Shown: in pieces, positions 11,473 to 30,117 of the stretch
Numbering within the stretch: position 1 is the stretch's first letter
How the letters are laid out: every line of letters starts with the position of its first letter
Source of the DNA: an uncultured Methanosarcinales archaeon
Lineage (GTDB): Archaea; Nanobdellota; Nanobdellia; Woesearchaeales; ARS49
Assembly: GCA_964637115.1 (NCBI GenBank)
Contig: CAZWVL010000002.1
Coordinates: forward strand, 1 to 64,000
Direction of reading: 5' to 3'
Length of the DNA stretch: 64,000 bases
Program-made: the position numbers and the translations under genes
The notes under the pieces: generated by a model
Told to the model about the DNA's origin: nothing
The model's input: only the letters and a program-made list of their open reading frames with translations
Databases searched by the model: none

Positions 11473-12435
11473 ATGAAAATACTAATAACAGGGGGAGCAG
11501 GGTTCCTTGGCAGCCATCTATGTGAAAAGTACGTGAATGATGGCCATACGGTCGTATGCTTTGATAACCTTGCAACAGGCGATTTGCAAAATGTACGTTC
11601 ACTCATTGCCAAACGAAATTTCAAATTCATAACAGGAGACGTCCGCGACAAAAAACTTCTTGAAAAAGTCGTACCAGGCTGCGATGCAATAATGCACTTG
11701 GCAGCACAAATTCACGTTGACAGATCGCTCATTGATCCGGAACATACCTACGAAGTCAATGTTCTCGGCACATTAAATATTCTTGAGCTCGCAAGACTGC
11801 ATGATGTGGGCAAGGTAATCCACGCATCAACATCGGAAGTTTATGGCACTGCACAAATGTCGCCAATGCCGGAAACACATCCTTTGGATGCACCGCATCC
11901 GTATGGAGCGAGCAAAATAGCAGCAGACAGAATGTGCTACGCATACCATCAGACATACGGAATGCCAGTGTACATTACTCGCTGCTTTAACATGTACGGC
12001 CCAAAGCAGAAAGACACAGGCTATGGAGGCGTAATTTCAATATTTACGCGACGTGTCATGAATAACATGCCGCCCATAATTTATGGAACAGGAGATCAGA
12101 CAAGAGATTATTTGTATGTTAAGGATGCAGTCAAAGCATATGACTTAGTTTTAAATTCAAAAAACAAGATAGCAGGAGTACCCATAAATTTTGGAACCGG
12201 TTACGACTTAAAGATCAAGACCATTGCAGAGCAAATCATCAAGCTGCTCAAAAAAGACATCAAGCCAGTCCACGTTTCTCCCAGACCAGGAGAAGTTGAA
12301 CACTTAATTGCCGACATTTCACGCGCAAAAGAACTTCTCGGCTTCAAGCCAGAATACAGCTTTGAACAAGGCATCAAAGAATTCATTGAATGGTATACAA
12401 GCTACCGCTCAGAGGAGTGGACAAAAGTCAGATGA
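11473..12435 (+). CDS. NAD-dependent sugar epimerase/4,6-dehydratase (extended SDR)
   Basis: TGGAGFLG, HLAAQIHVD, STSEVYG, YGASK and FNMYGP motifs. Confidence 0.9.
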   Translation: MKILITGGAGFLGSHLCEKYVNDGHTVVCFDNLATGDLQNVRSLIAKRNFKFITGDVRDKKLLEKVVPGCDAIMHLAAQIHVDRSLIDPEHTYEVNVLGTLNILELARLHDVGKVIHASTSEVYGTAQMSPMPETHPLDAPHPYGASKIAADRMCYAYHQTYGMPVYITRCFNMYGPKQKDTGYGGVISIFTRRVMNNMPPIIYGTGDQTRDYLYVKDAVKAYDLVLNSKNKIAGVPINFGTGYDLKIKTIAEQIIKLLKKDIKPVHVSPRPGEVEHLIADISRAKELLGFKPEYSFEQGIKEFIEWYTSYRSEEWTKVR

Positions 12436-13562
12436 AGAAACGAACCGATTTTCTCCCATTCTGTCCACCCTGCATTGGCAAAGAAGAAATTGAAGGAGTT
12501 GTGGACACGCTCAAGAACGGCTGGCTCACAATGGGGCCAAAAGTCGCAGAATTCGAAAAGAAATTTGCCGAATACTCAAATGTAAAGCACGCCGTTTCTG
12601 TAAATTCATGCACTGCAGGACTCCATCTGGCAAATATTGCAGCAGGACTCAAACCTGGCGATGAAGTCATTACAACACCAATCACGTTTGCTGCAACAGT
12701 TAATATGATAATCCACACTGGAGCAAAACCAGTGCTTGTTGATGTTGATGAGGATTACCAGTGCATTGACCCTGAAAAAATAAAAGAAGCAATCACCAAG
12801 AAAACAAAAGCAATAGTTCCAGTACATTTTGCGGGAAATCCCTGCGATATGAAAGCAATAATGGAAATTGTTTCGGACAATAATTTACAAGTTATTGAAG
12901 ACGCTGCGCATTCTGTAGGGGGAACTTATGACGGCAAGAAAAAAATGGGCAGCCTGGGAAATCTGACATCATTCAGCTTTTACGCAACTAAAAACATGAC
13001 AACAGGCGAAGGAGGCATGGTAACGACAAATGACGACGCACTCGCCGCACGATTAAAAGTGTTAAGACTGCATGGAATGAACAAGGATGCGTGGAAACGG
13101 TATACATCTGCTGGTAGTTGGTATTATGAGATTGTGGAACCTGGATGGAAAGACAACATGACGGATGTTGATGCTGCAATAGGACTTGCACAACTTAAGA
13201 AATTAGACAAGTTCTGCAGACAAAGACAGGAAATTGCTGACACGTATGCAAAACTGCTCAAAGATTTGCAATTAATATTGCCGAAAAACAAGACAGGAAA
13301 AGTGTGGCACATCTACCCAATACAAGTTTTAAAATCAGACAGGGCAAAAGTAATTGAACAATTGAAAGAGTATAATATCGGAACATCAGTGTTCTTTATT
13401 CCCATTCATTATCACCCTGCGTACAAGTATTTGAAATACAAAAAAGGAGACTTCCCAGTTGCAGAAGCATACTATAACAAAACACTCGCGTTACCTTTAT
13501 ATCCACACTTGAAAAAAGAAGATATTAAGTACGTATCTGGCGCACTACACGAGATACTATGA
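12432..13562 (+). CDS. DegT/DnrJ/EryC1/StrS-family PLP aminotransferase
   Basis: VNSCTAGLH, PVHFAG, IEDAAH and FSFYATKNMTTGEGG; ATGA overlap at 12432. Confidence 0.9.
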   Translation: MKKRTDFLPFCPPCIGKEEIEGVVDTLKNGWLTMGPKVAEFEKKFAEYSNVKHAVSVNSCTAGLHLANIAAGLKPGDEVITTPITFAATVNMIIHTGAKPVLVDVDEDYQCIDPEKIKEAITKKTKAIVPVHFAGNPCDMKAIMEIVSDNNLQVIEDAAHSVGGTYDGKKKMGSLGNLTSFSFYATKNMTTGEGGMVTTNDDALAARLKVLRLHGMNKDAWKRYTSAGSWYYEIVEPGWKDNMTDVDAAIGLAQLKKLDKFCRQRQEIADTYAKLLKDLQLILPKNKTGKVWHIYPIQVLKSDRAKVIEQLKEYNIGTSVFFIPIHYHPAYKYLKYKKGDFPVAEAYYNKTLALPLYPHLKKEDIKYVSGALHEIL

Positions 13563-14122
13563 AGGAAGTCATCAAGGCAATAATGTCGGTAATATGTTTT
13601 GTACTGCTTATACCATTTTTTATTCTTTATTTTATCAGACTTTTTGGCTTCATGTCAATTTCTCAATGCTTGAGCATGTTTCCAGGTTTTTTTGGAATAG
13701 TTCTCAGACGTGTCTGGTACAACTGCACACTTGCGGAATGCGGCAAGAATTTTACAGTTGATTTTATGGGAGTGATGAGAACACCAAAAAGCAAGGTAGG
13801 CAAGAACGTATACGTTGGCGTCAATACTTTTGTCGGATGGGCAGATATTGGCGATGACACAATGCTATCAGGGTACATAATGGTCCTCAGTGGAGCAGCG
13901 CAGCATGGCATCAAACCAGGAGTTTCAATGCGATTACAAGAAGGAAAAGTAGAGCACGTAACCATTGGCAAGGACTGCTGGATAGGAGCGGGCAGCATTG
14001 TTTTGACTGACATTGCAGACCATTCTGTTGTCGGCGCAGGAAGCGTTGTTACGAAGAAATTCGCTGCTTATGACATCATTGCAGGAGTTCCTGCGAAGAA
14101 GATAAAGAGCAGAAAAAGTTAA
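13559..14122 (+). CDS. Hexapeptide-repeat (left-handed beta-helix) acyltransferase
   Basis: VTIGKDCWIGAGSIV...VVGAGSVVTK...AGVPAK. Confidence 0.85.
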   Translation: MKEVIKAIMSVICFVLLIPFFILYFIRLFGFMSISQCLSMFPGFFGIVLRRVWYNCTLAECGKNFTVDFMGVMRTPKSKVGKNVYVGVNTFVGWADIGDDTMLSGYIMVLSGAAQHGIKPGVSMRLQEGKVEHVTIGKDCWIGAGSIVLTDIADHSVVGAGSVVTKKFAAYDIIAGVPAKKIKSRKS

Positions 14123-14131
14123 ATCGCAATA

Positions 14132-15613
14132 ATGAAAATCGTTCAAAAATTTCTTACAAATGAGCTCTTTATATCGCTGCTTTTTGTAGTTTTCTTCACT
14201 TATTTAATGTATCCGATCGCGGACCCGACAAAATACTACCGATTTAATTCTGACCATGCACTAGTTCTTTATATGATAACTGAAGATACACCTCCGCGCG
14301 AGAGCATATATTTGTGGGGACAATCGCGTTATGGCTCTTTATTATTCTTGATTTCCAAATTTTACTATATTGCCTTTCCAGCAAGCACCCTAGTGTTCGT
14401 CAATATTATGACAGTACTGTTTACTGTACTTGGTTTTTCCGTAATTGTATTCAAGAAAAAAGATAATTTTGTCCTGCTTCCTTTGGGATTGCTGTTCTTT
14501 ATATTTGTCGTGAAGACTGTTGCACCAGGGAATGTTTCTCTCTATGAACTTACTATTACTACGGCTTTCCGTCCAGATTTTCTGTTCACAATCAACGCAA
14601 CAATTCTTTTAATGCTGTTCAATTTCTATTACAAAAAGAATTGGTTTATACCCGCGCTCATTTTTGCCATATTGTCATCCTGGATAAACGATATTGCGCT
14701 GCCCCTTTTGTTTATCATTTGTGCCATATTCTCAATTTTTGATTTTATTAAAAACAGAAAAATATGCGCTTGGTATTGGCTTATCCTTTCAATCACGGCC
14801 ATTGCGATTGTAGTGCTGAAATATCTTTCTCCCAATAAAGACAGTGTATGGATTTTTGCAAGCCTCGAACAGATAAGTGCAAATTTTGTTTTTGCGGTTT
14901 CAAAAACCTTCAATGTTATTCCTGCGTATATGTGGATAGTAATAGTTTGTTTGCCCGTATATTTTGTGTGGCTCTATTTTAAACACGATGGAAAAGATGA
15001 AGACGTTACCTTTTATTTAGGCCACTCCATGCTTCTGTTCATATTAGGCGCTGCGATCTTTGTTATTCCATTTTTTAGTGACCATATTTACAGAAATAAT
15101 GTTTCACCACGGTATTTCATACACGGAATTCAGCTGCTTATGCTTGCAGCTTCCGTGAGCATTGTAGGCATTCTTGTTATTGTAAGAAAAAACGGATTCC
15201 TACGCGCAGTCCATTATTCTGCTTTTGCACTTATTCTTGTCCTGTTTGTGCCCATTTTCTTTACTTATAGAATGGAAATGCAGCAGCGGTCACCGTCAGC
15301 ATTCTATAAATCAGGAGAGCTGCTTATTGAATCTGGGTGCGAAGCAGTTGTTGGAGAATATTGGCTGTCATATGGGTATACAATTGGTGGTCTCGGAAAA
15401 CTAAAAGCAACACCTTATGATACCCGTCATACTTCTGATTCAAACATCGCACGCATATTAGCTATGAAAAACATCTGTGTTGTAGAGAAAACTACAAAGG
15501 ATTTCAAAGATCAGTACACAATACGAGGACGAACTTTGAAAGTTAAGAATTCTGCAGAAAAACCAATAAAATTGCCCGATAGCAGATATTTCAAACATTA
15601 TTTTTTTAAGTGA
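14132..15613 (+). CDS. Polytopic membrane protein, possible GT-C-fold glycosyltransferase
   Basis: About 11-12 TM helices; first-loop acidic motif FNSDHA...YLWGQSRYG; C-terminal soluble domain; visibly AT-rich. Confidence 0.5.
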   Translation: MKIVQKFLTNELFISLLFVVFFTYLMYPIADPTKYYRFNSDHALVLYMITEDTPPRESIYLWGQSRYGSLLFLISKFYYIAFPASTLVFVNIMTVLFTVLGFSVIVFKKKDNFVLLPLGLLFFIFVVKTVAPGNVSLYELTITTAFRPDFLFTINATILLMLFNFYYKKNWFIPALIFAILSSWINDIALPLLFIICAIFSIFDFIKNRKICAWYWLILSITAIAIVVLKYLSPNKDSVWIFASLEQISANFVFAVSKTFNVIPAYMWIVIVCLPVYFVWLYFKHDGKDEDVTFYLGHSMLLFILGAAIFVIPFFSDHIYRNNVSPRYFIHGIQLLMLAASVSIVGILVIVRKNGFLRAVHYSAFALILVLFVPIFFTYRMEMQQRSPSAFYKSGELLIESGCEAVVGEYWLSYGYTIGGLGKLKATPYDTRHTSDSNIARILAMKNICVVEKTTKDFKDQYTIRGRTLKVKNSAEKPIKLPDSRYFKHYFFK

Positions 15614-16706
15614 TGTTTTTCAGGGTTCTAACGAGTAACGGCACAACCTTCTTCAAATCGTACTGCTTGACCTGCTGAAGACCATCTTTTGACAACTTAT
15701 TTCTTAATTTCTCGTCTGAAAGAAGTTGGACAATCTTCGTGGCAAATGAGTTAATATCGCCTTTTTCAACCACAAAATCCTGTGCTGACTTGCTTACGAT
15801 GTCGCGCACGCCGCCAACATCAGACGCGACAAATGGAGTGCCGGTTGCCATGGCTTCTAGCAGAACTCTTGGAAAGCCTTCTTCGTCGGATGGCATCAAA
15901 AAGATGTCGGATTGTGCATATAATTTCATAACTTCCTTATTTGGCACGCTGCCCAACGTTTTTACCCACTTGCTGAGCTTCTTTTTTTTGATTTGCGCCT
16001 GCAAAGTCGGTAAATATGGTCCATCACCGGCAATAATGAATTGTGCCTTTGATTTTTTCAGCACTTTTTCAGCAATCGGCACAAGATAATGCGCGCCTTT
16101 TCTTTCTGAAATACGATGCACGAACAATATTTGAGGAATTTTGTTCTTTGAATGCTTTGGCTTGAACCGGGAAAGATCAATTTCATTCGGAACAACAAGA
16201 ATTTTTTTCAAAGGCACGCCAAACTGCTGATGATAATACTTTTTCATCCTTTCAGTGCCTGTAACGAGATAATCCACCATCTTTAATGATAATCTGAGCG
16301 GCCAATCGTCGTTAATCTTCGACTGCAGCCAGCCTTTTTGCCAGAAATGCTTGAAAAACAAGTGAGGGAGACCGCAATTCCAGTAAAAAACTCTTCCGCC
16401 GAAGAATTTTGTCATAATCGTTGCTGCAATTGCGCCGAAAAAGCTGTAATGAACGTAAAAAGTATCATATCCCTGAAGACGGAGCATCAAAAGGCGCGCA
16501 AATGTTTCACAAAAGCGTGGCACAAAAGATTTTGCGCTTATCGTCTCAATATTTTGTACGTTAGAAAGCTGTGGCGCACCCCTTGCCTTCTCTATCAGCA
16601 CGGCCAGCCTCGTCTTCTTTCCCAGTTCGCCCAACAGTTTGTAAATATGAAAGAAATGTTCGCCAGCACCCTCGTCGTACTTCGGAAGAACATAAACAAG
16701 CTTCAT
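15606..16706 (-). CDS. Glycosyltransferase family 4
   Basis: PSDEEGFPRVLLEAMATG (EX7E) motif; start set to ATG 16706. Confidence 0.85.
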   Translation of the reverse strand: MKLVYVLPKYDEGAGEHFFHIYKLLGELGKKTRLAVLIEKARGAPQLSNVQNIETISAKSFVPRFCETFARLLMLRLQGYDTFYVHYSFFGAIAATIMTKFFGGRVFYWNCGLPHLFFKHFWQKGWLQSKINDDWPLRLSLKMVDYLVTGTERMKKYYHQQFGVPLKKILVVPNEIDLSRFKPKHSKNKIPQILFVHRISERKGAHYLVPIAEKVLKKSKAQFIIAGDGPYLPTLQAQIKKKKLSKWVKTLGSVPNKEVMKLYAQSDIFLMPSDEEGFPRVLLEAMATGTPFVASDVGGVRDIVSKSAQDFVVEKGDINSFATKIVQLLSDEKLRNKLSKDGLQQVKQYDLKKVVPLLVRTLKNIT

Positions 16707-17827
16707 TTTGCAACCTGCCGCCACAAATCAAGACAGTCCTGCAAGTTTTTCTTTGGGTCAAATTTTTCCATAACCAACTTTTGACCAACCTTGCCCATCT
16801 CCTTTGCTTTTTTGTGGTTTTCGAGCACTTCAAGAATACGCAAAGCAAGAATGTCAGGATTGTCTTTTGGCACGATAAAGCCGGATTTCTCGTCAATAAC
16901 AACATCCTTTGCATCACGGACATCAGTACAGATAACAGGAAGGCCGGCTGCAGCCGCTTCAACAATAACTAACGGAATTCCTTCGTAAAATGAAGGGAGA
17001 ACAAGAACATCTGCGGCTTTGTGATATTTTGGAATGTCAGCGTGTGGCACACGACCGGTAAAAATAATATCTTTACAGCCAGCAGCCATTGTTTTCAAAT
17101 TTATTTCATCCTTTCCACTGCCGACAATTAAAAATAAAGTTTTTGGACGCTTTTGTGCAACTACTTTGGCCGCTCTAATCAGCGAGCCAACATTCTTCTC
17201 AACAGAAAGACGACCTATAAAAAGAACAATTCTGTCGTAGCTGCTAATGTATTTCTCACGCACGCTGCCCTTTTCATCAGCAAACTTCTTCAAGTCAACC
17301 AAAACAGGAGCAACCTTGACTTTTTCAGCAGAAACCCCGAGAGAAATGACTTTTTCGCGTTCAGTATCGCATTCAACTCTCACTCCATCCGCCGTCTTAA
17401 TCAGCCATTTGCCGAACATATTGAAAAAAGGATTTTTCCAATCCTCCTTTTTCCAATAAGGATCATCGAAGAAGCTGGAGACGATGTTGACGATTAATGG
17501 AATTCCAAGTCTTTTCTTCAAAAGATAGCCAGCATACCCGCACACAAACGGATCCTGTGTTGTCACCAAATTAATTGGGCGCTCTTTGTGAATTTCCTGC
17601 GCAATCTTCGCAGCCTGCCAAGGAAAACGCCACTGATATTTGGAATTGGTAGGATAAGCAATAACATTCTCAGCAATCTTTACTGGCTTAAAGTCCTTTG
17701 CAGGAGTATAGACAACTAGAGAGATAAAGTCAACGTGCTCGGCATATTTTTTCAGCCGATCAGCTAAATCGCCCCTGCCCTCCTGAGTAAATACCGTGTT
17801 GTCCAAGCCAATCATTAAGACGTGCAT
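16703..17827 (-). CDS. Glycosyltransferase family 4
   Basis: FIGRLSVEKN and PSFYEGIPLVIVEA; start set to ATG 17827. Confidence 0.85.
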   Translation of the reverse strand: MHVLMIGLDNTVFTQEGRGDLADRLKKYAEHVDFISLVVYTPAKDFKPVKIAENVIAYPTNSKYQWRFPWQAAKIAQEIHKERPINLVTTQDPFVCGYAGYLLKKRLGIPLIVNIVSSFFDDPYWKKEDWKNPFFNMFGKWLIKTADGVRVECDTEREKVISLGVSAEKVKVAPVLVDLKKFADEKGSVREKYISSYDRIVLFIGRLSVEKNVGSLIRAAKVVAQKRPKTLFLIVGSGKDEINLKTMAAGCKDIIFTGRVPHADIPKYHKAADVLVLPSFYEGIPLVIVEAAAAGLPVICTDVRDAKDVVIDEKSGFIVPKDNPDILALRILEVLENHKKAKEMGKVGQKLVMEKFDPKKNLQDCLDLWRQVAK

Positions 17828-17828
17828 A

Positions 17829-18929
17829 CTATTTTTCACCCTTTAAGAATTCAAGATACTTTTTATCTATTTCTTCACGTTTCGGCAGGTGCTTTGCCTT
17901 TGTAGCAAACTTCTTCGCTAAGGAAGGATCCCCGTAATATTTTAAAATACAGTCTTTCAACGCATCCATGTTATTGTACTCAAACAGCAATCCCCTGTTT
18001 TTAACCAGCTCAGGATTGCCGCATACGTCAGACGCAATCACGGGGCATTCAACAGACATTGCCTCCAACAAAGTATGTGACATTCCCTCATACTCGCTGT
18101 TCAATACAAGAATATCAGATGCTTTCATTAATGAACGCGTCTCATTTTCATCTTTCCTGCCCTCAAAACGCACCATGTGCGAAATATTTTCTTCATGTGC
18201 TGCTTTCTGCGCATCAAAAAACGCAGGGCCGTCTCCTACGATGATTAATAACAGTTCAGGAAGCTCTTTTCTCAATTTAGCGCACATTCGAATTATCTTA
18301 TCAACACCTTTGTAAGCGGTGATTCTGCCAACACTCAAAACCACGAACTTTTTGTCAAAACCAAACTTCTTTCTTAGAACATTCTTAGCAGGAAGTTTTA
18401 TAGGGGAAACTGCGTTTGGAATAACTCTGCTCTTGATGCCCCATTTTTTCAGCACCGATTCAAGAAAATTACTGACAGTAATGACTTCGGACTTTTGCAA
18501 TACTCCTTTCTGGATTCTCCGCAACAATTCAATTTTCCAATCATACTTTTTCTTCTGAAAAACTTCAAAAGAATCTTCAGTCCAATCATTTGAACGGGAA
18601 ATTTCCCAGGCAGAGTCGCCAACAAAACGCGTTACAAGCCTTTTTTTCAGCTTCTTTGCTGCACGCGCAGCAGGCCAGCCGGCGCTAAACGTATCTGTAG
18701 TAAAAATAACGTCGGCATCACGAGCCGACTTCAAAACGGCACGGTAAAAAGACCACCACTTAACAGGATTATCGTGAGAAATCGTAATAGCGTCTTTTCT
18801 AGGCTCTCCGTAAGTTATAACTTCAACAATCCAGCTATTCTTCTTCAAAAAAGGCACAAACTCACGAAGAAAAGTAGCAGGACCGCCGATATCAGGAGGA
18901 AAAATTCCAGTGGCAATGGTTATTTTCAT
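17829..18929 (-). CDS. Glycosyltransferase family 4
   Basis: TGIFPPDIGGPA, VGRITAYKG and SEYEGMSHTLLEAM. Confidence 0.85.
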   Translation of the reverse strand: MKITIATGIFPPDIGGPATFLREFVPFLKKNSWIVEVITYGEPRKDAITISHDNPVKWWSFYRAVLKSARDADVIFTTDTFSAGWPAARAAKKLKKRLVTRFVGDSAWEISRSNDWTEDSFEVFQKKKYDWKIELLRRIQKGVLQKSEVITVSNFLESVLKKWGIKSRVIPNAVSPIKLPAKNVLRKKFGFDKKFVVLSVGRITAYKGVDKIIRMCAKLRKELPELLLIIVGDGPAFFDAQKAAHEENISHMVRFEGRKDENETRSLMKASDILVLNSEYEGMSHTLLEAMSVECPVIASDVCGNPELVKNRGLLFEYNNMDALKDCILKYYGDPSLAKKFATKAKHLPKREEIDKKYLEFLKGEK

Positions 18930-20038
18930 TGTAAAACTCCATCAAATTGTTTTGCAACAATAGACCATTCGTATCTCTGCTTTATCATTTTCTGGCCATT
19001 TTTGACAATTGTCTTGGCAAGTTTTTTGTTTTTTAAGAGCAACGTAATCTTGTCAGCAAGGTCTTCAGGATTATGCACCTTGCAGAACAAGCCGGTCTTT
19101 TTGTCAACAAGAAAATCGGGAATGCCACCAACAGAAGTGCCGATAATGGGAACCCCGCAAGCCAAGGCCTCAACAAAACTGTTGCCAAAGCCCTCGCTTA
19201 ATGAAGGACGGACAAAAACATCGGCAGAACTCACATATTTAGGCAAGTCGTTGTACGGGATCAAGCCCAAAAAGCGCACGTCATCAGCAACACCAAGCTC
19301 TCTCGCAAGAGATTTTAATTTATCCTCATCCTCACCTGTTCCGCAGACGACTAAAACAGAAGGAATTTTCTTTTGAACAAGTGCAAATGCCCTGATAAGA
19401 TCATCAACAGCATTCTTGTGCGTTAGTCTGGAAACGGTAATGATAACTTTCTTTTTGTCAGCATTCCAGTCCCGGCGTATTTTTTTAACATTCGCGCCTT
19501 TTTTCGTGAAAGCTTGAGTATCAACACCATTTGGAATAATTGTTATATTATATGATGGAACGCCGTGAGCGATTGCACGATTTTTCAAATACTTGCTTAA
19601 AACAACATACTGCGGTTTTTTGCCATACACCCAATTATACAGAAAATAGAACGGTCCAAGCTTCTGCTTTATCCACTCTTCAGTATCACCGCTCTGCAAA
19701 TTAATGATGCATTTAGCACCCTGCATTTTTGCAACAACACGGGCAGCAAGAGCAGCCTGATTTTCCAGCAAGCCAAACACAATATCTGCCCTATGGAAGA
19801 GACCGTACAGAATCGCGCACGGCAAAAAAAGTAATTTGTCAAGCCACTGAATGCCAAAACCAAGACGGTGAATTGAGATGCCATCGATAACATCTGTTGA
19901 CGGTAACATTTTCATACGAGCAGTGACGACTTGAAATTCATATTTGTCCTTCAAACGGGCCATAACTTCGCGAACTGCAATCTCTGCACCACCCACAAAA
20001 GGAAAGTATGCCAATGTGAAAATAAGAACCTTCCTCAT
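18926..20038 (-). CDS. Glycosyltransferase family 4
   Basis: YFPFVGGAE, VSRLTHKNA and SLSEGFGNSFVEA. Confidence 0.85.
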   Translation of the reverse strand: MRKVLIFTLAYFPFVGGAEIAVREVMARLKDKYEFQVVTARMKMLPSTDVIDGISIHRLGFGIQWLDKLLFLPCAILYGLFHRADIVFGLLENQAALAARVVAKMQGAKCIINLQSGDTEEWIKQKLGPFYFLYNWVYGKKPQYVVLSKYLKNRAIAHGVPSYNITIIPNGVDTQAFTKKGANVKKIRRDWNADKKKVIITVSRLTHKNAVDDLIRAFALVQKKIPSVLVVCGTGEDEDKLKSLARELGVADDVRFLGLIPYNDLPKYVSSADVFVRPSLSEGFGNSFVEALACGVPIIGTSVGGIPDFLVDKKTGLFCKVHNPEDLADKITLLLKNKKLAKTIVKNGQKMIKQRYEWSIVAKQFDGVLQ

Positions 20039-21090
20039 AGAGATTTTAGCACCTTTTCAAACTTGTCTGTTACTTTATTCCAATCAAACTTCTCGCGCAC
20101 AGTCTTTTGCAGGACTTTTCCAAGCTTTTCCCGCAGTTTTTCATCATTAACAAGCTTCTGAATGGCAGTTTTCAATTCGTGCACGCTTCCAGGGTGAACT
20201 AAAATACCGTTTTTACCATCCTGAATTATTTCACTTGTGCCGCCGACATCAGTAGCAATGGTGGCGAGACCCATTGCACCTCCTTCAAGAACGGCAGTAG
20301 GCAGGCCCTCACCATATGACGGATTGACAAGAATATCAGAAGCAGTAAGAATCTCTCTAACACCAGTAATGTCTTTTTCACCAACAAATTTTCCACCAAG
20401 TTTTCTCAATTCACTTTCATAAGGACCTTTTCCAATAATGACGACAGAAACTTTTATTCCTTTAACTGCCCTCAACAAATCCTGCACGCCTTTTTCCTGG
20501 ATAAGACGGCCAACATAAGCTATCTGAATGCCTTTATGCGCCTTACTGCCGGTAAAGAACTTGGTATCAACACCATTATACAAAACCTGGCAGCTTTTAG
20601 CTCCAAATTTCTTTGTAAAATCGCAAGATGCTTTTGAAACACCAGCAACTGTCGCATTCCGCATAATCCAACTGCCGGCAGTCGCATCGAAAGTTTTCGC
20701 GCCAATATTTACCAGAGGATTAGAGTATTTCACTTGAGCAGTGCCGTGCTCAACGTGCAGCCAAGGAATTCCTTTAGACTTCGCAATCATTCCGCCGGCA
20801 ACAGACAAAGGATAAAAACGCGTATGCGTGATAATAACGTCAGGCCTGCCAATCTTTTCCAATGCGTTCATAGCAAAAGGAACAGCCATCCTGCCAGGCA
20901 ACGGCTCAATTGCCGGAAAACGAATGACTTTGATACCATCAATTGTTTCCTCTGGCTTCATCCCTTTGAGACGAGAAGTGACAACCCAGACCTTGTGCCT
21001 CTTAGCCAAACGCTTGCCGGTCTGGTAAACATAATTTTCAACACCGCCCCTGTGCGGCAGAAAATACGACGAGAAAATCACTATCTTCAT
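20035..21090 (-). CDS. Glycosyltransferase family 4
   Basis: PHRGGVE, VGRLIQEKG and SYGEGLPTAVLEG. Confidence 0.85.
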   Translation of the reverse strand: MKIVIFSSYFLPHRGGVENYVYQTGKRLAKRHKVWVVTSRLKGMKPEETIDGIKVIRFPAIEPLPGRMAVPFAMNALEKIGRPDVIITHTRFYPLSVAGGMIAKSKGIPWLHVEHGTAQVKYSNPLVNIGAKTFDATAGSWIMRNATVAGVSKASCDFTKKFGAKSCQVLYNGVDTKFFTGSKAHKGIQIAYVGRLIQEKGVQDLLRAVKGIKVSVVIIGKGPYESELRKLGGKFVGEKDITGVREILTASDILVNPSYGEGLPTAVLEGGAMGLATIATDVGGTSEIIQDGKNGILVHPGSVHELKTAIQKLVNDEKLREKLGKVLQKTVREKFDWNKVTDKFEKVLKSL

Positions 21091-21410
21091 TTTTTCAGGG
21101 AAATTTCCCTCACCAGCTTCGTAATCTCGCGCTCGAGCTTGTCAATTTTCATATTAAGCTGGAAGACCATGTAAAACAATATCAAAACCGCAATATACAC
21201 CACCATATCAATGCCCCTGCCAACACCAATCGGCCTAGACAAAGCATCGATAAAAGGAGTAGCAAATACAACAACTAAAACGGCAAACCAAATCAGGAAC
21301 CAAAATAAAGTTGTCCTGCCCGGAATCTTGTTTTTCTTCCATAAAACCAGAACGCGAGCTATGTGAATAACCGCAACAACCAACGCCACAATTTGAATCG
21401 GCTGCATCAT
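21087..21410 (-). CDS. DUF2304-family membrane protein
   Basis: Three TM helices with IGVGRGIDMVVY and KLEREITKLVRE; follows a GT2, the usual arrangement. Confidence 0.8.
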   Translation of the reverse strand: MMQPIQIVALVVAVIHIARVLVLWKKNKIPGRTTLFWFLIWFAVLVVVFATPFIDALSRPIGVGRGIDMVVYIAVLILFYMVFQLNMKIDKLEREITKLVREISLKK

Positions 21411-22081
21411 TTTGTAAACTTATGCACCATCATCTTGTAAAAGATTTTCACGGCATTTAAACTGCTCTGACCGTGCGCCTGACTGTAAGCCGTATATCTG
21501 ATAATAACAGGAACTTCAACATATTTCAAATGATGGCGCCTGATTTCAGACAAAATCTCGCTCGCGTGCTCCATCTGATCCATAGTAATCTCAATCTGCT
21601 CTGCTGCGTGCCTGGACAATGCGCGAAAGCCATTATGCACATCAGTCAAGCTGATGCCGTAAAAAAGCCAGACCAACAAAATGCCACCTTTCAACATAAT
21701 CTTTCTGAAAAAAGGCACATTAGATCCTGATTTCAGAAAACGACTGCCAAGAGCAACATCAACCTCTCCATTTTTCACAGGCGCGATCAAAACAGGAATG
21801 TCCTCAACACGATGCTGGCCATCAGCATCAAAAGTAACAACAATATCAGCACCTTCATTCAAGGCAAAATCAATGCCAGTTTTCAAAGCAGCACCCTGGC
21901 CCCTGTTGATGACGTGCTTGACAACGTTCTTTGTATGCTGTTTTGCAATCCTGGAAGTATCATCAACAGAGCCATCATCTACCACAACCACGTTTTTGTA
22001 GCCGGCCTTTACAAGCTCTTTAAGAACAGCGCCTATGCTGTGTTCTTCATTATACGCGGCGATAACTATCCATACGTGCAT
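21407..22081 (-). CDS. Glycosyltransferase family 2 (Dol-P-Man synthase-like)
   Basis: IAAYNEE, VDDGSVD, NRGQGAAL, TFDADGQH and TDVHNGFR. Confidence 0.9.
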   Translation of the reverse strand: MHVWIVIAAYNEEHSIGAVLKELVKAGYKNVVVVDDGSVDDTSRIAKQHTKNVVKHVINRGQGAALKTGIDFALNEGADIVVTFDADGQHRVEDIPVLIAPVKNGEVDVALGSRFLKSGSNVPFFRKIMLKGGILLVWLFYGISLTDVHNGFRALSRHAAEQIEITMDQMEHASEILSEIRRHHLKYVEVPVIIRYTAYSQAHGQSSLNAVKIFYKMMVHKFTK

Positions 22082-22129
22082 ACGCTTAGAACAATAATTT
22101 GGCTTTATAAACCTTTAGAACTACATGTA

Positions 22130-25100
22130 CTACAACAATGCTTCAACACGAATCTTAAAGTGCAAAGTTTTATTGCCCAAGAGGTGCTTTGAAGGATCAG
22201 TGCCATAAGCTTCTTCAGGCGGAATAACAATGGTCTTCGTCTCGCCTTTCTTCATTCCCTGAATCCGCTTATCAAAACCAGGAATAACCTTGCCAGCACC
22301 AGAAACGAACGACAAAGGCTTCGCATTAAAATCCTCAAACTTTGAATCAGGAGTGACGTTCAACAATTTCCAGTTTTCTATGCTGCTGTCAAACACCTCA
22401 TTGTCATCAGTCCAGCCAATATAATGAACTGAAACCTTCGCTCCTGGCTCAACGCTGCTCTTCGGCTCAAGCTCTTTTGGAACATATGCTTCTGAACCTT
22501 CCCAATCAACCTTGTAAGCGTAAATATTGCCGCCAATCAACTGACGGTCTTCAGCAAATGGTTTGAAGTGCTTCAAGCCAAGACCTTTCATAAAGAACAT
22601 TCTAGTAAACATACTGTCAGCAAGCTCTGCATTCGCAGCAATCGCACTCACGCCACCTTCTGTTGGCCACATAACAACTATCAGTCCAGCGTTTCCATTC
22701 GGCACTTCCACAATTTGCTTTTCACCATTTGAATTGTAAATGATAACTTTGCCGGCACGAGCAACACCCTGCTGTATGCGTATTTCAGCATACTTGGTTG
22801 TCAAGTTAACAGCAATATTTCCGCCACAACGCGCAGTATCTCCGGAAACAGAACAAGAACTCGCATCTGATGCCAAATAACCAGGCCATGAACTAATCCA
22901 AGCATTAGCTGTATCTTCTGAAGTCAAAGCATTAGCTTCATTGTAAATGCGCTTCGCCTCTTCTTCAGTCCAATTAAAGCGCTTAACCATCTGCGGCACT
23001 GCCTCACTTTCATCCATCAACCGCCATTTCTGCCAGACCTCTGCTTTGTCAAACGTCCACATGCCAAAGTGCGCCCAGACACCAGCTTTTCCAATCATAT
23101 CAGCACTGGCAATAAAGAAATCTTCAGGAGGACTGCAATGCGTGTACTTCAAAATTTCTTCAGAAACACCGGCAGATTTTGCAGTCTGCGCAGCAGAATC
23201 CTTGTCCTGCATAATAATATCCTTAACTAATTTGATAGAGACAACAGGATCCTGAGTTGCATTCAATGCGAAATCATAGGCAGAATTTGCACCGCAATCA
23301 AGCATTCGCAAAATTCCAACTGCCTCTTTTTCATTATCAGTTTGCAGAGCGCGGCCAACCCAATGCGCCTGGGGCGAGTTTTGAATAGCGCCGTCAGAAG
23401 TTGTCGCGCGGTCAGCAATGTACTTGAAATGATGGCCAAAGTCCCACCACGAGTTGATAATAGCATTCGGCTGGCTGTTGTCCTTAATCTTTGTCAGCAC
23501 ACCCCACCACGCGTCATTAACAAGAGGGATATCATTAACAACACTGCCGTATGAATTTTGCACCATGTGAGCGCCTGAAACAGCAGGATTCACAATTATC
23601 ACTCCCATGACAACAATGACGACAATACTGGTGATAGTCTTGCCTAGATGCAGGCTTCTTTCGCCAAAAGCAGACAAGCGCTGCGCAAGCAAGCCGGCAG
23701 CAGCGCCAAAAGCAACTGCAAAAGCAGGGCCAAGAAGCAAAGTGAAACGTAAACCCTTCAAAGAAGCATAAATCGTGCCAATAAACCATAACGTCAACAA
23801 TGCAGTGTAAGTAACGTCAATTTTGCCGTGCTCATCGCGTTTTAGCAATAAAAGCAGGATGCCTAGCATGGCAATAACAAACATCAACGTACCGCCAATG
23901 GAGGCGATTACCTGGCTGAAGCTTGCCGGATTCAATTCCGCAACAGTTGTGTATACGTTAGGCCACAAGTTGGGCAAGGAGGCGGATTTGATTATGGTGA
24001 AGCTCAGCGCGCCCCTGAACGCACCTTCAATAAAACTAGTGAAACCAATCGTTAACGAACAAAACACAGCTGACGACGCAAAGAATGCCACACCAATCGT
24101 GATAAATTTCTTAATGCGCGAATGATGCCAGAGAGTGCCCTCCTTCAACTGCTGCAGATGTGTAAAGATTTCGAACACAACAGCAACCGCAAATGCGCCG
24201 AGAACAAAATCAAAAACATACCACCAGCCGCTCCACAAATTTGAAAATACTGCAAGCGTAAGACCAGTGAGCACACCAAACAATGCCTGCTTTTTCAACG
24301 ATGATGCGCTCAATGCGATAAATAACAAGTAAACAGCCAATGTTGGGAAAAATACGTTGTACGCATCTGTATCAAAGTGGCCCCAAGGAGTCCTGCCCAT
24401 CACTGCAGGCATAACAGCAAGCACAGTTACTGCAAAAAATCCACCAATATTGCCGGAAACTTTCTGTGCGATAAAGAAAACAAAAATTAAAGACAAAAAT
24501 ATGAACACAATCGGGAAATAATTGGAAGACTGCATCAAAGTAATACGGCTGTCAAATAATTTCATGATTTTAAACAGAACAACGGCCACATACGGATGCC
24601 AGTTCTTGTCGGCTGGCAAGCCCAATGGAGCCATCATATGATCATCCCATGGCTGGCCGTCCTTCAGTATATCATATGCGTGTCCTTTCTCAACAATATT
24701 ACGAGCATATCTCAAGTAGAAGTACGGGTCAATGTCAGGCATATAACCGAACTTTCTGCCGTCAGACTCATACTGATAATGATCTCTTATTTGATCTGCG
24801 AGCTTTTTTTCCTCCTGAGCCAGCTGATCCTTGTTTTCGTCCTTGATTTTCTTCATCACATCATTGACGACTTTCACCTTATTCGCATCAGGAAGATTTG
24901 GATACTGCTGATTTGCGATGACAGAGGCCTGCTGCCTCAGATAATTATCAACGCTTGATGCAGCAGCAGAATCAGCAATAGGCAGATCACTAGATTGCAT
25001 TCGAATCCATATTCCGCCCCACGGATAATTACCGCCCGGATTAGGAATAAATTGCAGGATGAGCACTAATAATAGTGTAAGCAATACGGCATGCTTCTTG

Positions 25101-25156
25101 GAGAATGAAATGATCTTCTGGACTTGGGAAGTTCCCCCGCTGCTTTGCTCTTCCAT
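22130..25156 (-). CDS. aglB: Oligosaccharyltransferase AglB/STT3 with a fused C-terminal FKBP-type PPIase domain
   Basis: DIDPYF, GHFDTD, TVAEL and SWWDFG STT3 motifs; last ~108 aa are FKBP-like (VSVHYIG..VFDSS..VIPGFDKRIQGMKKGE..IPPEEAYG); start set to ATG 25156. Confidence 0.9.
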   Translation of the reverse strand: MEEQSSGGTSQVQKIISFSKKHAVLLTLLLVLILQFIPNPGGNYPWGGIWIRMQSSDLPIADSAAASSVDNYLRQQASVIANQQYPNLPDANKVKVVNDVMKKIKDENKDQLAQEEKKLADQIRDHYQYESDGRKFGYMPDIDPYFYLRYARNIVEKGHAYDILKDGQPWDDHMMAPLGLPADKNWHPYVAVVLFKIMKLFDSRITLMQSSNYFPIVFIFLSLIFVFFIAQKVSGNIGGFFAVTVLAVMPAVMGRTPWGHFDTDAYNVFFPTLAVYLLFIALSASSLKKQALFGVLTGLTLAVFSNLWSGWWYVFDFVLGAFAVAVVFEIFTHLQQLKEGTLWHHSRIKKFITIGVAFFASSAVFCSLTIGFTSFIEGAFRGALSFTIIKSASLPNLWPNVYTTVAELNPASFSQVIASIGGTLMFVIAMLGILLLLLKRDEHGKIDVTYTALLTLWFIGTIYASLKGLRFTLLLGPAFAVAFGAAAGLLAQRLSAFGERSLHLGKTITSIVVIVVMGVIIVNPAVSGAHMVQNSYGSVVNDIPLVNDAWWGVLTKIKDNSQPNAIINSWWDFGHHFKYIADRATTSDGAIQNSPQAHWVGRALQTDNEKEAVGILRMLDCGANSAYDFALNATQDPVVSIKLVKDIIMQDKDSAAQTAKSAGVSEEILKYTHCSPPEDFFIASADMIGKAGVWAHFGMWTFDKAEVWQKWRLMDESEAVPQMVKRFNWTEEEAKRIYNEANALTSEDTANAWISSWPGYLASDASSCSVSGDTARCGGNIAVNLTTKYAEIRIQQGVARAGKVIIYNSNGEKQIVEVPNGNAGLIVVMWPTEGGVSAIAANAELADSMFTRMFFMKGLGLKHFKPFAEDRQLIGGNIYAYKVDWEGSEAYVPKELEPKSSVEPGAKVSVHYIGWTDDNEVFDSSIENWKLLNVTPDSKFEDFNAKPLSFVSGAGKVIPGFDKRIQGMKKGETKTIVIPPEEAYGTDPSKHLLGNKTLHFKIRVEALL

Positions 25157-25298
25157 GACGTGCAAAACCAGAGCACTGCTTAAAAAGTTTGTCATCACCA
25201 AATGTCGAACTAGTTGCCACTATAGAATAGCAACAGATAGAAAGTTTTAAATATCTCTTGCACTACGTCGATAATTAAGCTATATATAACGGGGGTTT

Positions 25299-26411
25299 AT
25301 GATGAGCATTTGGAAAAGTTTCAAGAATACAGTTCTCACAGGAGCATTACTTGCAGGTTCTCTATTTGCAACGCAAAAAGCATACTCACAAGACACTTAC
25401 AACGAGGACAACAAGCCGGCGAAAACAGAAAAAACCGCGCCAATACTCTCACTCACTGACGATAATATTGAAAGGAAAGTTGATGTTCTGCTTAGAGGCT
25501 CACTCCAGGCAAAAGCAGAAACAGATCCATTAGTTGACAGATTGTCAGCAAGCGCACAATTTGAATGGATGACAGGCAATCTTAGACCTTATCTTGGCAT
25601 CCAGGACGTCTTTGAAAAATGGGATAATATCGACGGAAGCAAGCTTGAAGTAAACTCTTTGCGCGAAATAGCAGCACTTGGCATATATTTGGAAAACACT
25701 CCGAAACAAGAAATATACCTGCGTGCTATTCTGGGAAACGAAAACAGCAAATTCAGCGACGCTATAAAAATGGATTCACAACGCTTGATTTATGGTGTAG
25801 AAGCAGGCCTTGCAAGCGTAGAAAAAGGATACAAACTACTCGCAAAATTCTACAAAGGAAACGGAAAGTTTGACGCAGAACTTGAAAGCGGCTTTGAAAT
25901 CGACGGAGATTTGGATACAACATATGCAGGTCTTGAAGGCAGATTTGCACTTAGTCGCGAGGGAAAAAGGCGCTCAGGAAGCTCAGAATTCGACAAACGC
26001 CAGGATGAAAGAGAAGCAAACTTCACACTTGACCTTCTTGCAGACGTGTACTGGAACAGAAACGAGTTTGTTGAACTTGAACAAGACGACACAATACAAT
26101 TCAAGCTTGGGCCATCATTCACGTGGAATTACCGCGATGAAAAAGGAAATGGCGGCATATGGAATTTGACAACATATGGTGTCTACAAGAATCTCGAAAC
26201 AGAAAGCGGAATTTCACTGAGACAAACACAGACAACAACTATGGGCGGTGGTGCTACATTTACCTATTCACCAACTCCACACTGGAGCTTATCCGTACTG
26301 CTTGGCGTCAACAAAAGCAAGCAAACAATCGACGATCCAGGTCAAAACTTTGACCGAACAGAAACAAGGAGCGGCGTTACTGCAGCCTTTATCATCAGAT
26401 ATGATTTTTAG
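25299..26411 (+). CDS. Secreted all-beta protein resembling an outer-membrane beta-barrel
   Basis: Sec-type signal peptide (AYS|Q), about 14-16 alternating-hydrophobicity strands and a C-terminal ...FIIRYDF beta-signal-like end. Confidence 0.6.
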   Translation: MMSIWKSFKNTVLTGALLAGSLFATQKAYSQDTYNEDNKPAKTEKTAPILSLTDDNIERKVDVLLRGSLQAKAETDPLVDRLSASAQFEWMTGNLRPYLGIQDVFEKWDNIDGSKLEVNSLREIAALGIYLENTPKQEIYLRAILGNENSKFSDAIKMDSQRLIYGVEAGLASVEKGYKLLAKFYKGNGKFDAELESGFEIDGDLDTTYAGLEGRFALSREGKRRSGSSEFDKRQDEREANFTLDLLADVYWNRNEFVELEQDDTIQFKLGPSFTWNYRDEKGNGGIWNLTTYGVYKNLETESGISLRQTQTTTMGGGATFTYSPTPHWSLSVLLGVNKSKQTIDDPGQNFDRTETRSGVTAAFIIRYDF

Positions 26412-26483
26412 GCAAACTTTTAAATATTAGTGCCACTCTACAGTAGATATAAAGCGTTTGACGCTCATATCGGGGGGATTACA

Positions 26484-27560
26484 ATGAAAGGAATATACGG
26501 AGCATTGCTCGCAGCAGGATTAAGCGTTTTCAACTACGGATGCGCAGTACAAAAGGATTCTAAATTAGAACAGAAAGCAGCTGTAGTCCAGAAAGCTGAA
26601 CAAGACTCATATTCTGCAAAAGGCAACCAAGAAAAAGTCGTATATCTCCGCGATCAGCTCAAAGCAGTCAAGAAAGACGGCGTTGTAAACCCTAATGAAA
26701 TTTCTACAATTGAAACAACTGTTGCACGTGCAGAACAAGTGAGCAAATCACTCAAAGGCGAAGATGCAATCAGCAAAGCAGTAAAAGCAGAAGCAGAATC
26801 AATTGCAAAAGACGGCAATCAGTATAAAACGGACCTTCTCAACAGCAAACAGCTTGAAGTATATGCAGTTGTTCTCTATCAGGAACAACCTGGCAATCCA
26901 GCATCAAGCGTTAAAGCAATGGGTGTTAATGAAAACGATCACATGAAGCTTGAAGGCATATGTGCAGAGCAATCAACAGTGCTTGGCTTCAGCGCAGAAA
27001 AGGCATTTGCAAAACGTTCAACCAAGGACAGCTGGGGATATTCAAGAGATACAAAGCTCGGCCTAAGTAAAGAGGATTATCTGCGTTTGTCAAAAGAAGA
27101 GATAAAAGCAATCGAAGCAAGACAACAGGATTTTCTTGGCAGTGTTACCTGGGTAGAAAATCCAGAAAAATTAGCACAATACTTCCCGGGAAAGAAATTA
27201 TCCTGCTCAGTGGATGCAGATACATTCAGCGAAAAGCGCTACAACGATGCTCTCGCAAAAGGCAAAATCCTTAGAGTCGGAGTTCAGTATGTACTGAGAA
27301 CTCTTGAGCCAACAAAGAAAGAAAAGAAAGACAAGAAAACAGAAGCTCCTAAAGTAGAAGCACCAAAAGCAGTAGAAGCGCCAAAAATAGACGACGCTGC
27401 TGCAAAAGCTGCTGCTGAAAAAGCAAAAGCAGACTCTGAAGCAAGAGCAGCTGCAGAAAGAAAAGCAGCAGAAGCAAGAGCAACTGCAGAAAAATCAGCT
27501 GCTGAGAAAGCCAAGAAAGTAAAAGACCTCGGCGACATCGACACATACGTTGAGAAGTAA
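26484..27560 (+). CDS. Lipoprotein with a TolA-like Ala/Lys/Glu-rich C-terminal helix
   Basis: Lipobox-like NYGC; three EAPK repeats then AAAKAAAEKAK...; G-rich SD; start set to ATG 26484. Confidence 0.7.
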   Translation: MKGIYGALLAAGLSVFNYGCAVQKDSKLEQKAAVVQKAEQDSYSAKGNQEKVVYLRDQLKAVKKDGVVNPNEISTIETTVARAEQVSKSLKGEDAISKAVKAEAESIAKDGNQYKTDLLNSKQLEVYAVVLYQEQPGNPASSVKAMGVNENDHMKLEGICAEQSTVLGFSAEKAFAKRSTKDSWGYSRDTKLGLSKEDYLRLSKEEIKAIEARQQDFLGSVTWVENPEKLAQYFPGKKLSCSVDADTFSEKRYNDALAKGKILRVGVQYVLRTLEPTKKEKKDKKTEAPKVEAPKAVEAPKIDDAAAKAAAEKAKADSEARAAAERKAAEARATAEKSAAEKAKKVKDLGDIDTYVEK

Positions 27561-27600
27561 TTTTTAATTTTTTTATCAATTATAAAAAGGGAAAAACCAA

Positions 27601-28698
27601 ATGAAACCAACCAAAACACTACCATTCATTTCTATGCTTTTGATAGCAGCAATGATAACTGCACCATTCATCTTCGCATTCGAAGGCGGCTTTGACAGCA
27701 GCTTCTTCACAGGCGGTTCTTATGGCGGAACAGATTCGAGCGCGTTCTCAGGCGGCTCTTATGGAGGCCAAGATCCAAGTGCTTTCTCAGGCGGTTCATT
27801 CGGAGGAACTGACCCAAGCGCGTTCTCAGGCGGTTCTTATGGCGGAACTGATCCAAGTGCATTCTCGGGCGGTTTATATGGCGGAACTGATCCGAGTGCA
27901 TTTTCGGGCGGCTCAGAAACAGGAACTGGAAGCACATCAGGCAGCATAACAGGCGGAACAACTGGAGGCAGCTTTGACGGACCAGGCAGCATAGGATTCC
28001 CAGGCGGAGACCTGCCAGGCGGACCAGCACCAGGACCAGGACCAGGATTCCCATCAGAACACGACGCAGTATGGCAAGATTTGCCAGATAAAACAATCCT
28101 GCGCGGCAGTCCATCAGGCACGCTCATACAAGAAAACGTATTTGACAAGTGCACAGACCCAGACAGCGACACATTATTCTTTGAAATAACAAGCACATCA
28201 ACACATTATGAATTATTCTTCTTCGCAAACGACATCAGAATCTTTTTCCTTGATCCAGGTTTTGTAGGCAGTGAAACGGCTGTTGTAACCTGCAACGGAG
28301 TGCCGGAAAGCTTCTTACTGCACGTTGTTGAAAGAGGAGCATCAATACAAACACTGGAAGATGAAGATGACAGACTCAGTGTGCACATCGGCGCTATTAT
28401 AATACCAAACGCATACGATGCGCAAGCAGGAGATGTTGTTCCTGTCACAATCTCATTCAAAAACAATGGTGACGAGAAGCTCGAAAACCTGAAAGCAGCT
28501 GTCGCAATTCCAGACCTTGGTGTAAAAGCATCAGTAGGGCCAATGGAAGATCTGCCAGTAGGCAAGCGCGTCAGCAAGACTGTTTATATCGAACTTCCAG
28601 AAGATGCCAAAGAAGGCATGTACTATGCACGCATAACGATTGACAGCGGCTCATTACACCGCGTCAAGCACCGCGATGTTGAAGTCATCGTGCAATAA
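27601..28698 (+). CDS. Secreted protein: Gly/Ser/aromatic tandem repeats, cadherin-like module and CARDB-like Ig domain
   Basis: Signal peptide, about six 13-aa repeats, DPDSD motif and VPVTISFKNNGDEKLENL. Confidence 0.75.
   Translation: MKPTKTLPFISMLLIAAMITAPFIFAFEGGFDSSFFTGGSYGGTDSSAFSGGSYGGQDPSAFSGGSFGGTDPSAFSGGSYGGTDPSAFSGGLYGGTDPSAFSGGSETGTGSTSGSITGGTTGGSFDGPGSIGFPGGDLPGGPAPGPGPGFPSEHDAVWQDLPDKTILRGSPSGTLIQENVFDKCTDPDSDTLFFEITSTSTHYELFFFANDIRIFFLDPGFVGSETAVVTCNGVPESFLLHVVERGASIQTLEDEDDRLSVHIGAIIIPNAYDAQAGDVVPVTISFKNNGDEKLENLKAAVAIPDLGVKASVGPMEDLPVGKRVSKTVYIELPEDAKEGMYYARITIDSGSLHRVKHRDVEVIVQ
27694..27927 (+). repeat. In-frame 39-bp tandem repeat (about 6 copies) encoding DPSAFSGGSYGGT
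   Basis: Read directly from the DNA and the translation; synonymous differences between copies. Confidence 0.9.
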
Positions 28699-28754
28699 TA
28701 TAGAAACCAACGCCAAACGCAGTTTGGCGAGGTCTCGAAATCCTTACGGATATC

Positions 28755-28768
28755 GAAACCTTTATATA
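28755..28768 (+). promoter_or_regulatory. BRE-TATA promoter of the S-layer-like gene
   Basis: GAAACC TTTATATA about 100 nt before ATG 28870. Confidence 0.55.
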
Positions 28769-28869
28769 ATAGTATTTACTAGAAGGTAGTAACAGAGTAA
28801 AACTACTCCAGAATAGAAAAACTTTAATAGCAGGATACTGTCCTGCAAACATATGTGGGGGTCATCATA

Positions 28870-30093: not shown

Positions 30094-30117
30094 GGATACA
30101 TTCGTTTTGGGGGATCA

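Follow-up and report, generated by a model that had tools for sequence, protein, structure and literature searches.

We report an archaeal protein in which an AglB-type oligosaccharyltransferase (OST) continues, within a single open reading frame, into an FKBP-type peptidyl-prolyl isomerase (PPIase) domain. Its gene (aglB-FKBP; 22130..25195 on the minus strand, on which all its features given below lie) was found in a window of 64,000 nucleotides, namely positions 1 to 64,000 of contig CAZWVL010000002.1 in the assembly (GCA_964637115.1) of an uncultured archaeon placed by GTDB in the Woesearchaeales. The covalently attached PPIase sets this enzyme apart from every characterized OST. We lean towards the view that the tail acts as an outward-facing prolyl-isomerase or prolyl-peptide-binding module, which is kept at a set place on the OST, beside its active site, and works on freshly translocated chains, the activity itself being predicted.

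The reading frame passes without any internal stop through the STT3, core and FKBP domains to its stop codon at 22130-22132. Three starts are candidates, TTG 25201, ATG 25195 and ATG 25156, giving products of 1023, 1021 and 1008 aa, respectively; the 1021-aa version is identical to the database protein call, and the residue numbers used here refer to the 1008-aa product. Profile searches recovered three Pfam domains: STT3 (PF02516) at residues 135-520 (E 2.5e-32; 113.3 bits, cut-off 24.5), the STT3/PglB/AglB core (PF21436) at residues 567-698 (E 2.9e-07; 31.5 bits, cut-off 23) and FKBP_C (PF00254) at residues 901-1004 (22145-22456; E 5e-22; 78.5 bits, cut-off 21.1). A sequence search of the PDB divided the protein likewise, with the body retrieving PglB, STT3A and STT3B and the tail retrieving FKBPs. 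The first-pass annotation had described an uninterrupted frame at 22130-25156 with the STT3 motifs and a C-terminal FKBP; both its coordinates and its description are correct, being borne out by the Pfam matches and by motif conservation among the relatives, with 25156 being one of the three candidate starts.

An alignment of 110 relatives of the fused protein furnished the conservation counts given here and the basis of an AlphaFold2 model (mean predicted local distance difference test score (pLDDT) 92.9; predicted TM-score (pTM) 0.86). The GT-C membrane domain (residues 9-522; 23591..25132), delineated by the STT3 profile, hydropathy, the modeled helices and Foldseek, has about 13 hydrophobic helical membrane segments by hydropathy and modeled helices, the same as in the solved PglB and AglB structures, and a long, helical external loop 1 (EL1; residues 35-186). 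The first DXD motif, D141-I-D143 (24728..24736), retains D143 in 110/110 and D141 in 106/110 of the relatives; both aspartates of the second, D262-T-D264 (24365..24373), are present in all 110, as are T404 and E407 of T404-V-A-E407 (23936..23947), a motif of the TIXE type that lies in external loop 5. In this enzyme family, the DXD-type and TIXE/SVSE motifs bind the metal and the acceptor asparagine. The WWDYG motif, here W570-W-D-F-G574 (23435..23449), preserves its two tryptophans, aspartate and glycine in 110/110, with the fourth position being phenylalanine in 104 and tyrosine in 6. Likewise, R255 and R470 are invariant or nearly so. The stretch D686-M-I-G-K690-A-G-V-W694 (23075..23101), with D686, K690, V693 and W694 in every relative, is what we take, from its position and from the motif definitions, to be a variant of the DK/MI-type motif, which forms the Ser/Thr pocket; it presumably represents a hybrid, MxxKxxxW, fitting neither DxxKxxx(M/I) nor MxxIxxx(I/V/W) exactly. 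EL1 also carries a motif, Y85-P-N-L-P89 (24890-24904), whose P86, L88 and P89 are invariant across the same alignment.

The membrane domain is followed by the extracytoplasmic C-terminal domain of AglB (residues 531-890; 22487..23566), recognized by the STT3-PglB core profile, the model and the colinearity, up to the end of the domain, of an unfused 803-aa paralog. Foldseek searches with the model recovered PglB (6gxc; E 6.5e-21), Archaeoglobus AglB (5gmy, 7e9s and 3waj) and the yeast and human STT3 proteins (STT3A, 6s7o), the matches to AglB, PglB and STT3 ranging from E 1e-13 to 1e-21. By its profiles, predicted GT-C fold, DXD and TIXE motifs and WWDYG motif, the protein is a member of glycosyltransferase family GT66, with the DK/MI motif alone being atypical, and we propose from these conserved elements that it is a full AglB oligosaccharyltransferase able to carry out catalysis. 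Compared with the AglB, PglB and STT3 structures (3RCE, 5OGL, 6GXC, 3WAJ, 5GMY and 7E9S), it has in common the membrane domain, the DXD, TIXE-type and WWD(F/Y)G motifs and the external C-terminal domain; it differs in the unusually long, helical EL1 and in the hybrid (D)MxxKxxxW motif. Further, the external domain forms the C-terminus of the solved and characterized enzymes, whereas in this protein it is followed by a linker of 26 residues and then by an FKBP domain.

The linker (residues 886-906; 22439..22501) is of fixed length: the spacing from W885 to Y912 is exactly 26 residues in 75 of the 110 relatives, L896, K899 and G905 are conserved, and the model has a pLDDT of about 90 in this region. 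Because the spacing is fixed, positions within it are conserved and the model is confident there, the linker does not appear to be a floppy tether.

The domain beyond it, coextensive with the FKBP_C match, is assigned to the FKBP family by that profile, by the predicted fold and by a conserved hydrophobic proline pocket; its PDB sequence matches are wheat FKBP73, BpMip and FKBP25. Foldseek with the C-terminal part of the model gave TM-scores of 0.75-0.81 to FKBP12 and FKBP13, and of 0.7-0.8 across FKBP12, FKBP13, FKBP25 and BpMip. It is of the short FKBP12 type, which has no insert-in-flap (IF) chaperone insert. Mapping by hand from alignments to FKBPs of known structure placed the equivalents of the FKBP12 pocket at Y912, F922, D923, V957, I958, F961, Y984 and F1000. 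In FKBP12 numbering, Y26 is kept in 109/110 relatives, F36 in 105/110, D37 in 108/110, I56 in 92/110, Y82 in 108/110, H87 in 104/110 and F99 in 109/110; V957, the equivalent of V55, varies among hydrophobic residues (valine in 46/110). Gaps against the FKBPs of known structure further define a 22-residue insertion in the 40s loop (residues 926-947; 22316..22381), which has this length in 78/110 relatives, keeps W929 and F940 in at least 90% of them and bears a sequon, N933-V-T, present in 81/110. A second sequon, N995-K-T (107/110), was considered as a sign of glycosylation and set aside as uninformative, as it coincides with the generic N-A/K-T-L strand of cytosolic FKBPs. Relative to the short PPIases of this type (human FKBP12, FKBP13 and FKBP25, BpMip and the FK1 domain of wheat FKBP73), the domain shows about 30-34% identity over about 110 columns, TM-scores of 0.7-0.8 and a kept pocket; unlike them, it forms one chain with a membrane enzyme, is predicted to lie outside the cell, has phenylalanine in place of W59 and carries the sequon-containing insertion.

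Since the solved enzymes with about 13 membrane segments have an external C-terminal domain, the homology to PglB and AglB together with the predicted model would place the FKBP domain outside the membrane, as the first-pass annotation had it. The sequon at N933 and the sequon-dense tails of unfused relatives are both consistent with this placement. A docking run between the FKBP domain (residues 897-1008) and the AglB core (residues 20-890) scored 0.00, which gives no verdict and was not used either way.

The fusion is widespread. A search of 5.8 billion proteins found more than 100 clusters, drawn from independent assemblies (NCBI, JGI, ENA and Logan), that share it at 39-80% identity; almost all of them measure 1000-1130 aa and have STT3 and FKBP_C, and the named ones belong mostly to Candidatus Woesearchaeota. 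Public databases label these fused proteins inconsistently, either as 'FKBP-type isomerase' or as 'STT3 domain-containing protein'. Among 401 genomes sampled across the phylum, at least 40 (38 without the unpublished G243 and G396), from six family-level groups, carry the fusion in a single open frame; this count is a lower bound, obtained with the last 356 residues as the query and a colinear match from the external AglB domain into the FKBP as the requirement. A count of PF00254 over 301 genomes of the order, with four fused rows among the matches listed and a predominance of frames of about 150 aa, was not used. At the nucleotide level, Logan contigs of two studies hold the junction at 100% of the sampled words, with contigs of 3132 and 1876 nt crossing positions 22456-22489 without any difference, and in a third study a strain variant, 95-99% identical, crosses it with substitutions and no indel. 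As to the read support that had been called for at the STT3/FKBP junction, contigs from independent runs span it without an indel. No RNA dataset is listed among those containing the sequence; a 180-nt identical contig (22662-22838) from a run labeled 'metatranscriptomic' was examined as a trace of expression and rejected, the run being flagged as 'probably DNA'; a bacterial promoter and terminator scan, inapplicable to an archaeon, was likewise not used.

A survey of the tails in the best 150 representatives at 50% identity revealed that the region beyond the AglB domain is evolutionarily mobile: 38 have an FKBP, about 80 no tail, about 21 a short acidic or sequon-rich tail and 11 a PPIC/parvulin domain. 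The parvulin, which belongs to a PPIase family unrelated to FKBP, sits at the same C-terminal position, with Pfam E-values down to 3e-30 (the 11 cases include P0203, which is below the Pfam cut-off at E 0.0036). Such parvulin-AglB fusions, examples of which are P0110, P0173, P0250, P0254 and P0257, come from sister lineages within the Woesearchaeota and have orthologous AglB cores (about 40% identity). Among the remaining tails, those of P0144, P0152, P0160, P0186, P0198 and P0240 are 50-100 residues long and strongly acidic or packed with N-X-S/T, as expected for predicted glycosylated external stalks, and the non-PPIase tail of P0184 resembles a degenerate parvulin. The other non-PPIase tails are of low complexity, either acidic or rich in sequons, and no tail of thioredoxin type was seen in the 261 proteins examined.

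Trees built from the AglB core alone indicate repeated exchange of these domains. On a FastTree phylogeny of 147 rows, branches supported at 95 or above require the FKBP state to change 10 times or more and the parvulin state nine times or more, counts that we treat cautiously as tails scored as none may include truncated gene calls. With IQ-TREE and only the FKBP- and parvulin-bearing cores, six switches between FKBP and parvulin are found, at least four of them forced by Shimodaira-Hasegawa-like approximate likelihood ratio test (SH-aLRT) values of at least 95, and the approximately unbiased (AU) test rejects a single parvulin clade (difference in log-likelihood 360, p 1e-82); the query falls within a clade of 19 rows that all bear an FKBP. 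One and the same position has thus repeatedly recruited two unrelated PPIase families, and because of this the selected property would be the proline-directed binding or catalysis that they share; we regard this as the strongest argument for such a property. The earlier notion of a folding helper at the OST is strengthened by the unrelated PPIase at the same position in the relatives.

Briefly, we advance the following mechanism. The external C-terminal domain of AglB would continue through the short, fixed linker into a short-type FKBP on the outer face. This module may bind proline-containing segments of newly translocated, unfolded proteins and would probably isomerize them, acting where AglB glycosylates the same proteins. 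As glycosylation needs flexible acceptor segments, which folding removes, a single chain could coordinate the two processes. For the single-chain glycosylation and folding enzyme envisaged in the first-pass annotation, the architecture, the outside location and the conservation are supported; the PPIase or binding activity, its action on AglB substrates and its coupling to glycosylation are what we infer. A stronger version of this proposal, which we put forward tentatively, is that the OST and PPIase work as one machine, with the tethered PPIase deciding which segments stay accessible and which fold, and in so doing shaping glycosite occupancy. It is similarly conceivable, at about the same low level of confidence, that such a machine is a solution reached several times with unrelated PPIases, in parallel to OST3/6 and FKBP11 of eukaryotes.

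These comparisons merit some elaboration. The eukaryotic OST3/OST6 subunits (TUSC3/MagT1) share with the archaeal tail the concept of a folding-related domain at the OST that keeps acceptor segments accessible; they differ in fold, in acting by thiol-disulfide exchange, in being separate subunits and in not being homologous to it. The thioredoxin family of OST3/OST6 type (PF04756), marked by a CxxC-bearing thioredoxin fold and four transmembrane helices, has no Pfam match in the fused protein, and the analogy is a functional one only. In Bacillus subtilis, PrsA is a membrane-anchored extracytoplasmic parvulin foldase for newly secreted proteins; its anchor is a lipid and not an enzyme, and it is not known to be linked to glycosylation. 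A eukaryotic precedent, missed by the first-pass annotation, is human FKBP11, which together with CCDC134 is found at the SEC61/OST-A translocon with its FKBP domain on the non-cytosolic side beside STT3, at the point of emergence of nascent chains (Nature 2025, PMC12804085). In contrast to the covalent fusion of the archaeal case, FKBP11 is a subunit of its own, with a single membrane pass, and its recruitment goes through the ribosome.

The genome is that of a typical DPANN archaeon, with 1.27 Mb in 27 contigs and 98% completeness. A second AglB of 803 aa, the unfused paralog mentioned above (contig C5, ~37.9-40.3 kb, minus strand), has WWDYG and STT3 core matches, is 24% identical to the fused enzyme, aligns colinearly with it and stops precisely at the point from which the linker of the latter starts. 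Two stand-alone FKBPs are also encoded: a 314-aa protein (contig C2, ~68.4-69.4 kb, plus strand), just beyond the window, in which a signal peptide and a lipobox-like 'LLAAC' precede the FKBP domain, and a 213-aa protein that lacks a signal sequence and is presumably cytoplasmic. Identity of the fused FKBP to each of the two is only 25-27%. Both stand-alone proteins match the FKBP_C profile only to about position 69-76 of 94, which we read as a probable IF-type insert.

The predicted secreted proteins of this genome exceed the cytoplasmic ones in proline (5.7% vs 4.1%), cysteine (2.1% vs 1.2%) and sequon content (0.76 vs 0.365 per 100 aa). The earlier remark that neighboring secreted proteins are proline-rich holds weakly: it fails for the two nearest divergent genes, with 2.4-2.5% proline, and is true of a few small proteins of the window. 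The latter comprise four predicted secreted proteins of 133-181 aa, with 9-10.5% proline and 3-4 cysteines each, at 8209-8754 and 53131-53532 on the plus strand and at 56293-56805 and 56859-57320 on the minus strand. In 211 predicted secreted proteins, proline stands at position -2 of N-X-S/T in 8.2% of cases versus 4.1% at other asparagines (odds ratio 2.1, p 6e-4), an effect not seen in cytoplasmic proteins. This signal was rejected as 9 of its 35 cases come from one tandem-repeat protein; it falls to about 6.4% when that protein is left out and would then fail correction for 16 positions. The protein in question, a predicted secreted one of 1183 aa (contig C8:32362-35913, minus strand), consists in part of nine 80-residue repeats, each with N-P-V-N-T-S, and is likely a heavily glycosylated surface protein. 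As for cysteine, C621, C674, C768 and C777 (~22826-23296) of the external AglB domain are invariant in the 110 relatives, and along with the cysteine-rich secretome this hints at disulfide formation outside the cell.

Several observations weigh against a proline-directed role of the tail at the OST. The main caveat comes from FKBP11, whose pocket is buried by CCDC134 and for which the authors argue against isomerase action and which appears to be a non-catalytic adaptor (PMC12804085). In the domain itself, F961, the equivalent of W59, is phenylalanine in 103/110 relatives, and there is no IF insert, to which archaeal FKBPs and SlyD owe their chaperone activity. The tail is evolutionarily labile, with about 80 of the 150 nearest representatives having none (some perhaps being truncated gene calls); therefore, AglB works without it. 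Finally, the same genome encodes an unfused AglB alongside a separate secreted FKBP, and robust proline enrichment next to sequons was not found in the predicted secretome.

Some of these points would equally suit a general membrane-anchored foldase, i.e., a housekeeping extracytoplasmic PPIase for which AglB would only be a membrane anchor close to the Sec exit site, comparable to the anchored lipoprotein PrsA of Gram-positive bacteria, and which would be unconnected with glycosylation. The frequent gain, loss and swapping of tails, the many unfused relatives and the unfused paralog, the separate FKBP with a signal peptide and lipobox, and the missing sequon-proline signal all accord with such a foldase. 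However, an anchor could be supplied by any membrane protein, and even so two unrelated PPIase families have repeatedly joined this very protein at this very position; moreover, the linker is fixed, conserved and confidently modeled, unlike a plain tether. We judge the anchored foldase improbable, roughly a one-in-several prospect. Slightly less probable still is a non-catalytic adaptor or regulator, in which the pocket would bind a fixed proline ligand, from a partner or from an AglB loop, and thereby recruit partners or gate the OST. It has the precedent of human FKBP11, which plays such a part for CCDC134 at OST-A (PMC12804085) and whose structure, PDB 9n9j, is among the fold matches, and it would agree with the lack of the IF chaperone insert and the seemingly fixed geometry of the linker. 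Against this, the FKBP is replaced in relatives by a parvulin, which differs from it in fold and surface, and this speaks for selection on a biochemical property common to both rather than on one specific interface. Further, the only internal ligand candidate examined, Y85-P-N-L-P89 of EL1, was rejected, as it is no less common in unfused (60/80) and short-tailed relatives (20/21). Lastly, the joining of two genes by misassembly or sequencing error at the junction is a negligible prospect, and to the extent that sequence can show is excluded, given the architecture in more than 100 independent clusters and many genomes, the contigs of two studies and the strain variant spanning the junction with zero indels, and the conserved linker length; no evidence in its favor was found.

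In its genomic neighborhood, aglB-FKBP opens a series of eight minus-strand genes (15606-25201) that are closely spaced or overlap, and it heads a predicted glycosylation operon, in which it is followed by a GT2 glycosyltransferase (21407..22081; PF00535, E 3.4e-26), a small DUF2304 membrane protein that overlaps both its neighbors (21087..21410; PF10066, E 2.2e-25) and five consecutive overlapping GT4 (Glycos_transf_1) genes (15606..21090; PF00534, E 1e-31 to 3e-48), all on the minus strand. These seven glycosyltransferase-related genes, together with the higher sequon density of the predicted secreted proteins, provide a context for the predicted transfer of a lipid-linked glycan to the asparagine of N-X-S/T. 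Convergent with them on the plus strand are sugar-modification genes (11473..15613) coding for an NAD-dependent dehydratase/epimerase, a DegT aminotransferase, a hexapeptide acyltransferase and a 493-aa multi-pass membrane protein. The last of these (14132-15613) has no Pfam match; its place between the GT4 array and the other sugar-modification genes makes it a possible glycan flippase or polymerase. Divergent from aglB-FKBP, on the plus strand, are five genes (25299-32475), of which two have no Pfam match and three have Ig-like domains of the NPCBM_assoc, CARDB or FixG_C types; their products are probably cell-surface proteins and candidate substrates of AglB.

The first-pass annotation knew of no account of such a fusion, and our search of the full-text literature and of a 2024 review of archaeal N-glycosylation found no description of an archaeal AglB-FKBP fusion. 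In archaea and bacteria, whose OST is presumed to work by itself, the coordination of glycosylation with folding outside the cytoplasm is still an unsettled matter. Against this backdrop, the architecture is clear, conserved and experimentally tractable, with its function being predicted. Were the domain to be only a generic anchored foldase, it would still be a clear new domain architecture, and one that is inconsistently labeled in databases. A natural single-chain OST-PPIase offers a compact system in which to test whether folding catalysts tune N-glycosylation, and the fusion could serve as a part for glyco-engineering. In evolutionary terms, the fusion is shared by many DPANN genomes, has been rebuilt repeatedly with a second PPIase family and stands as an independent parallel to the accessory subunits of the eukaryotic OST.

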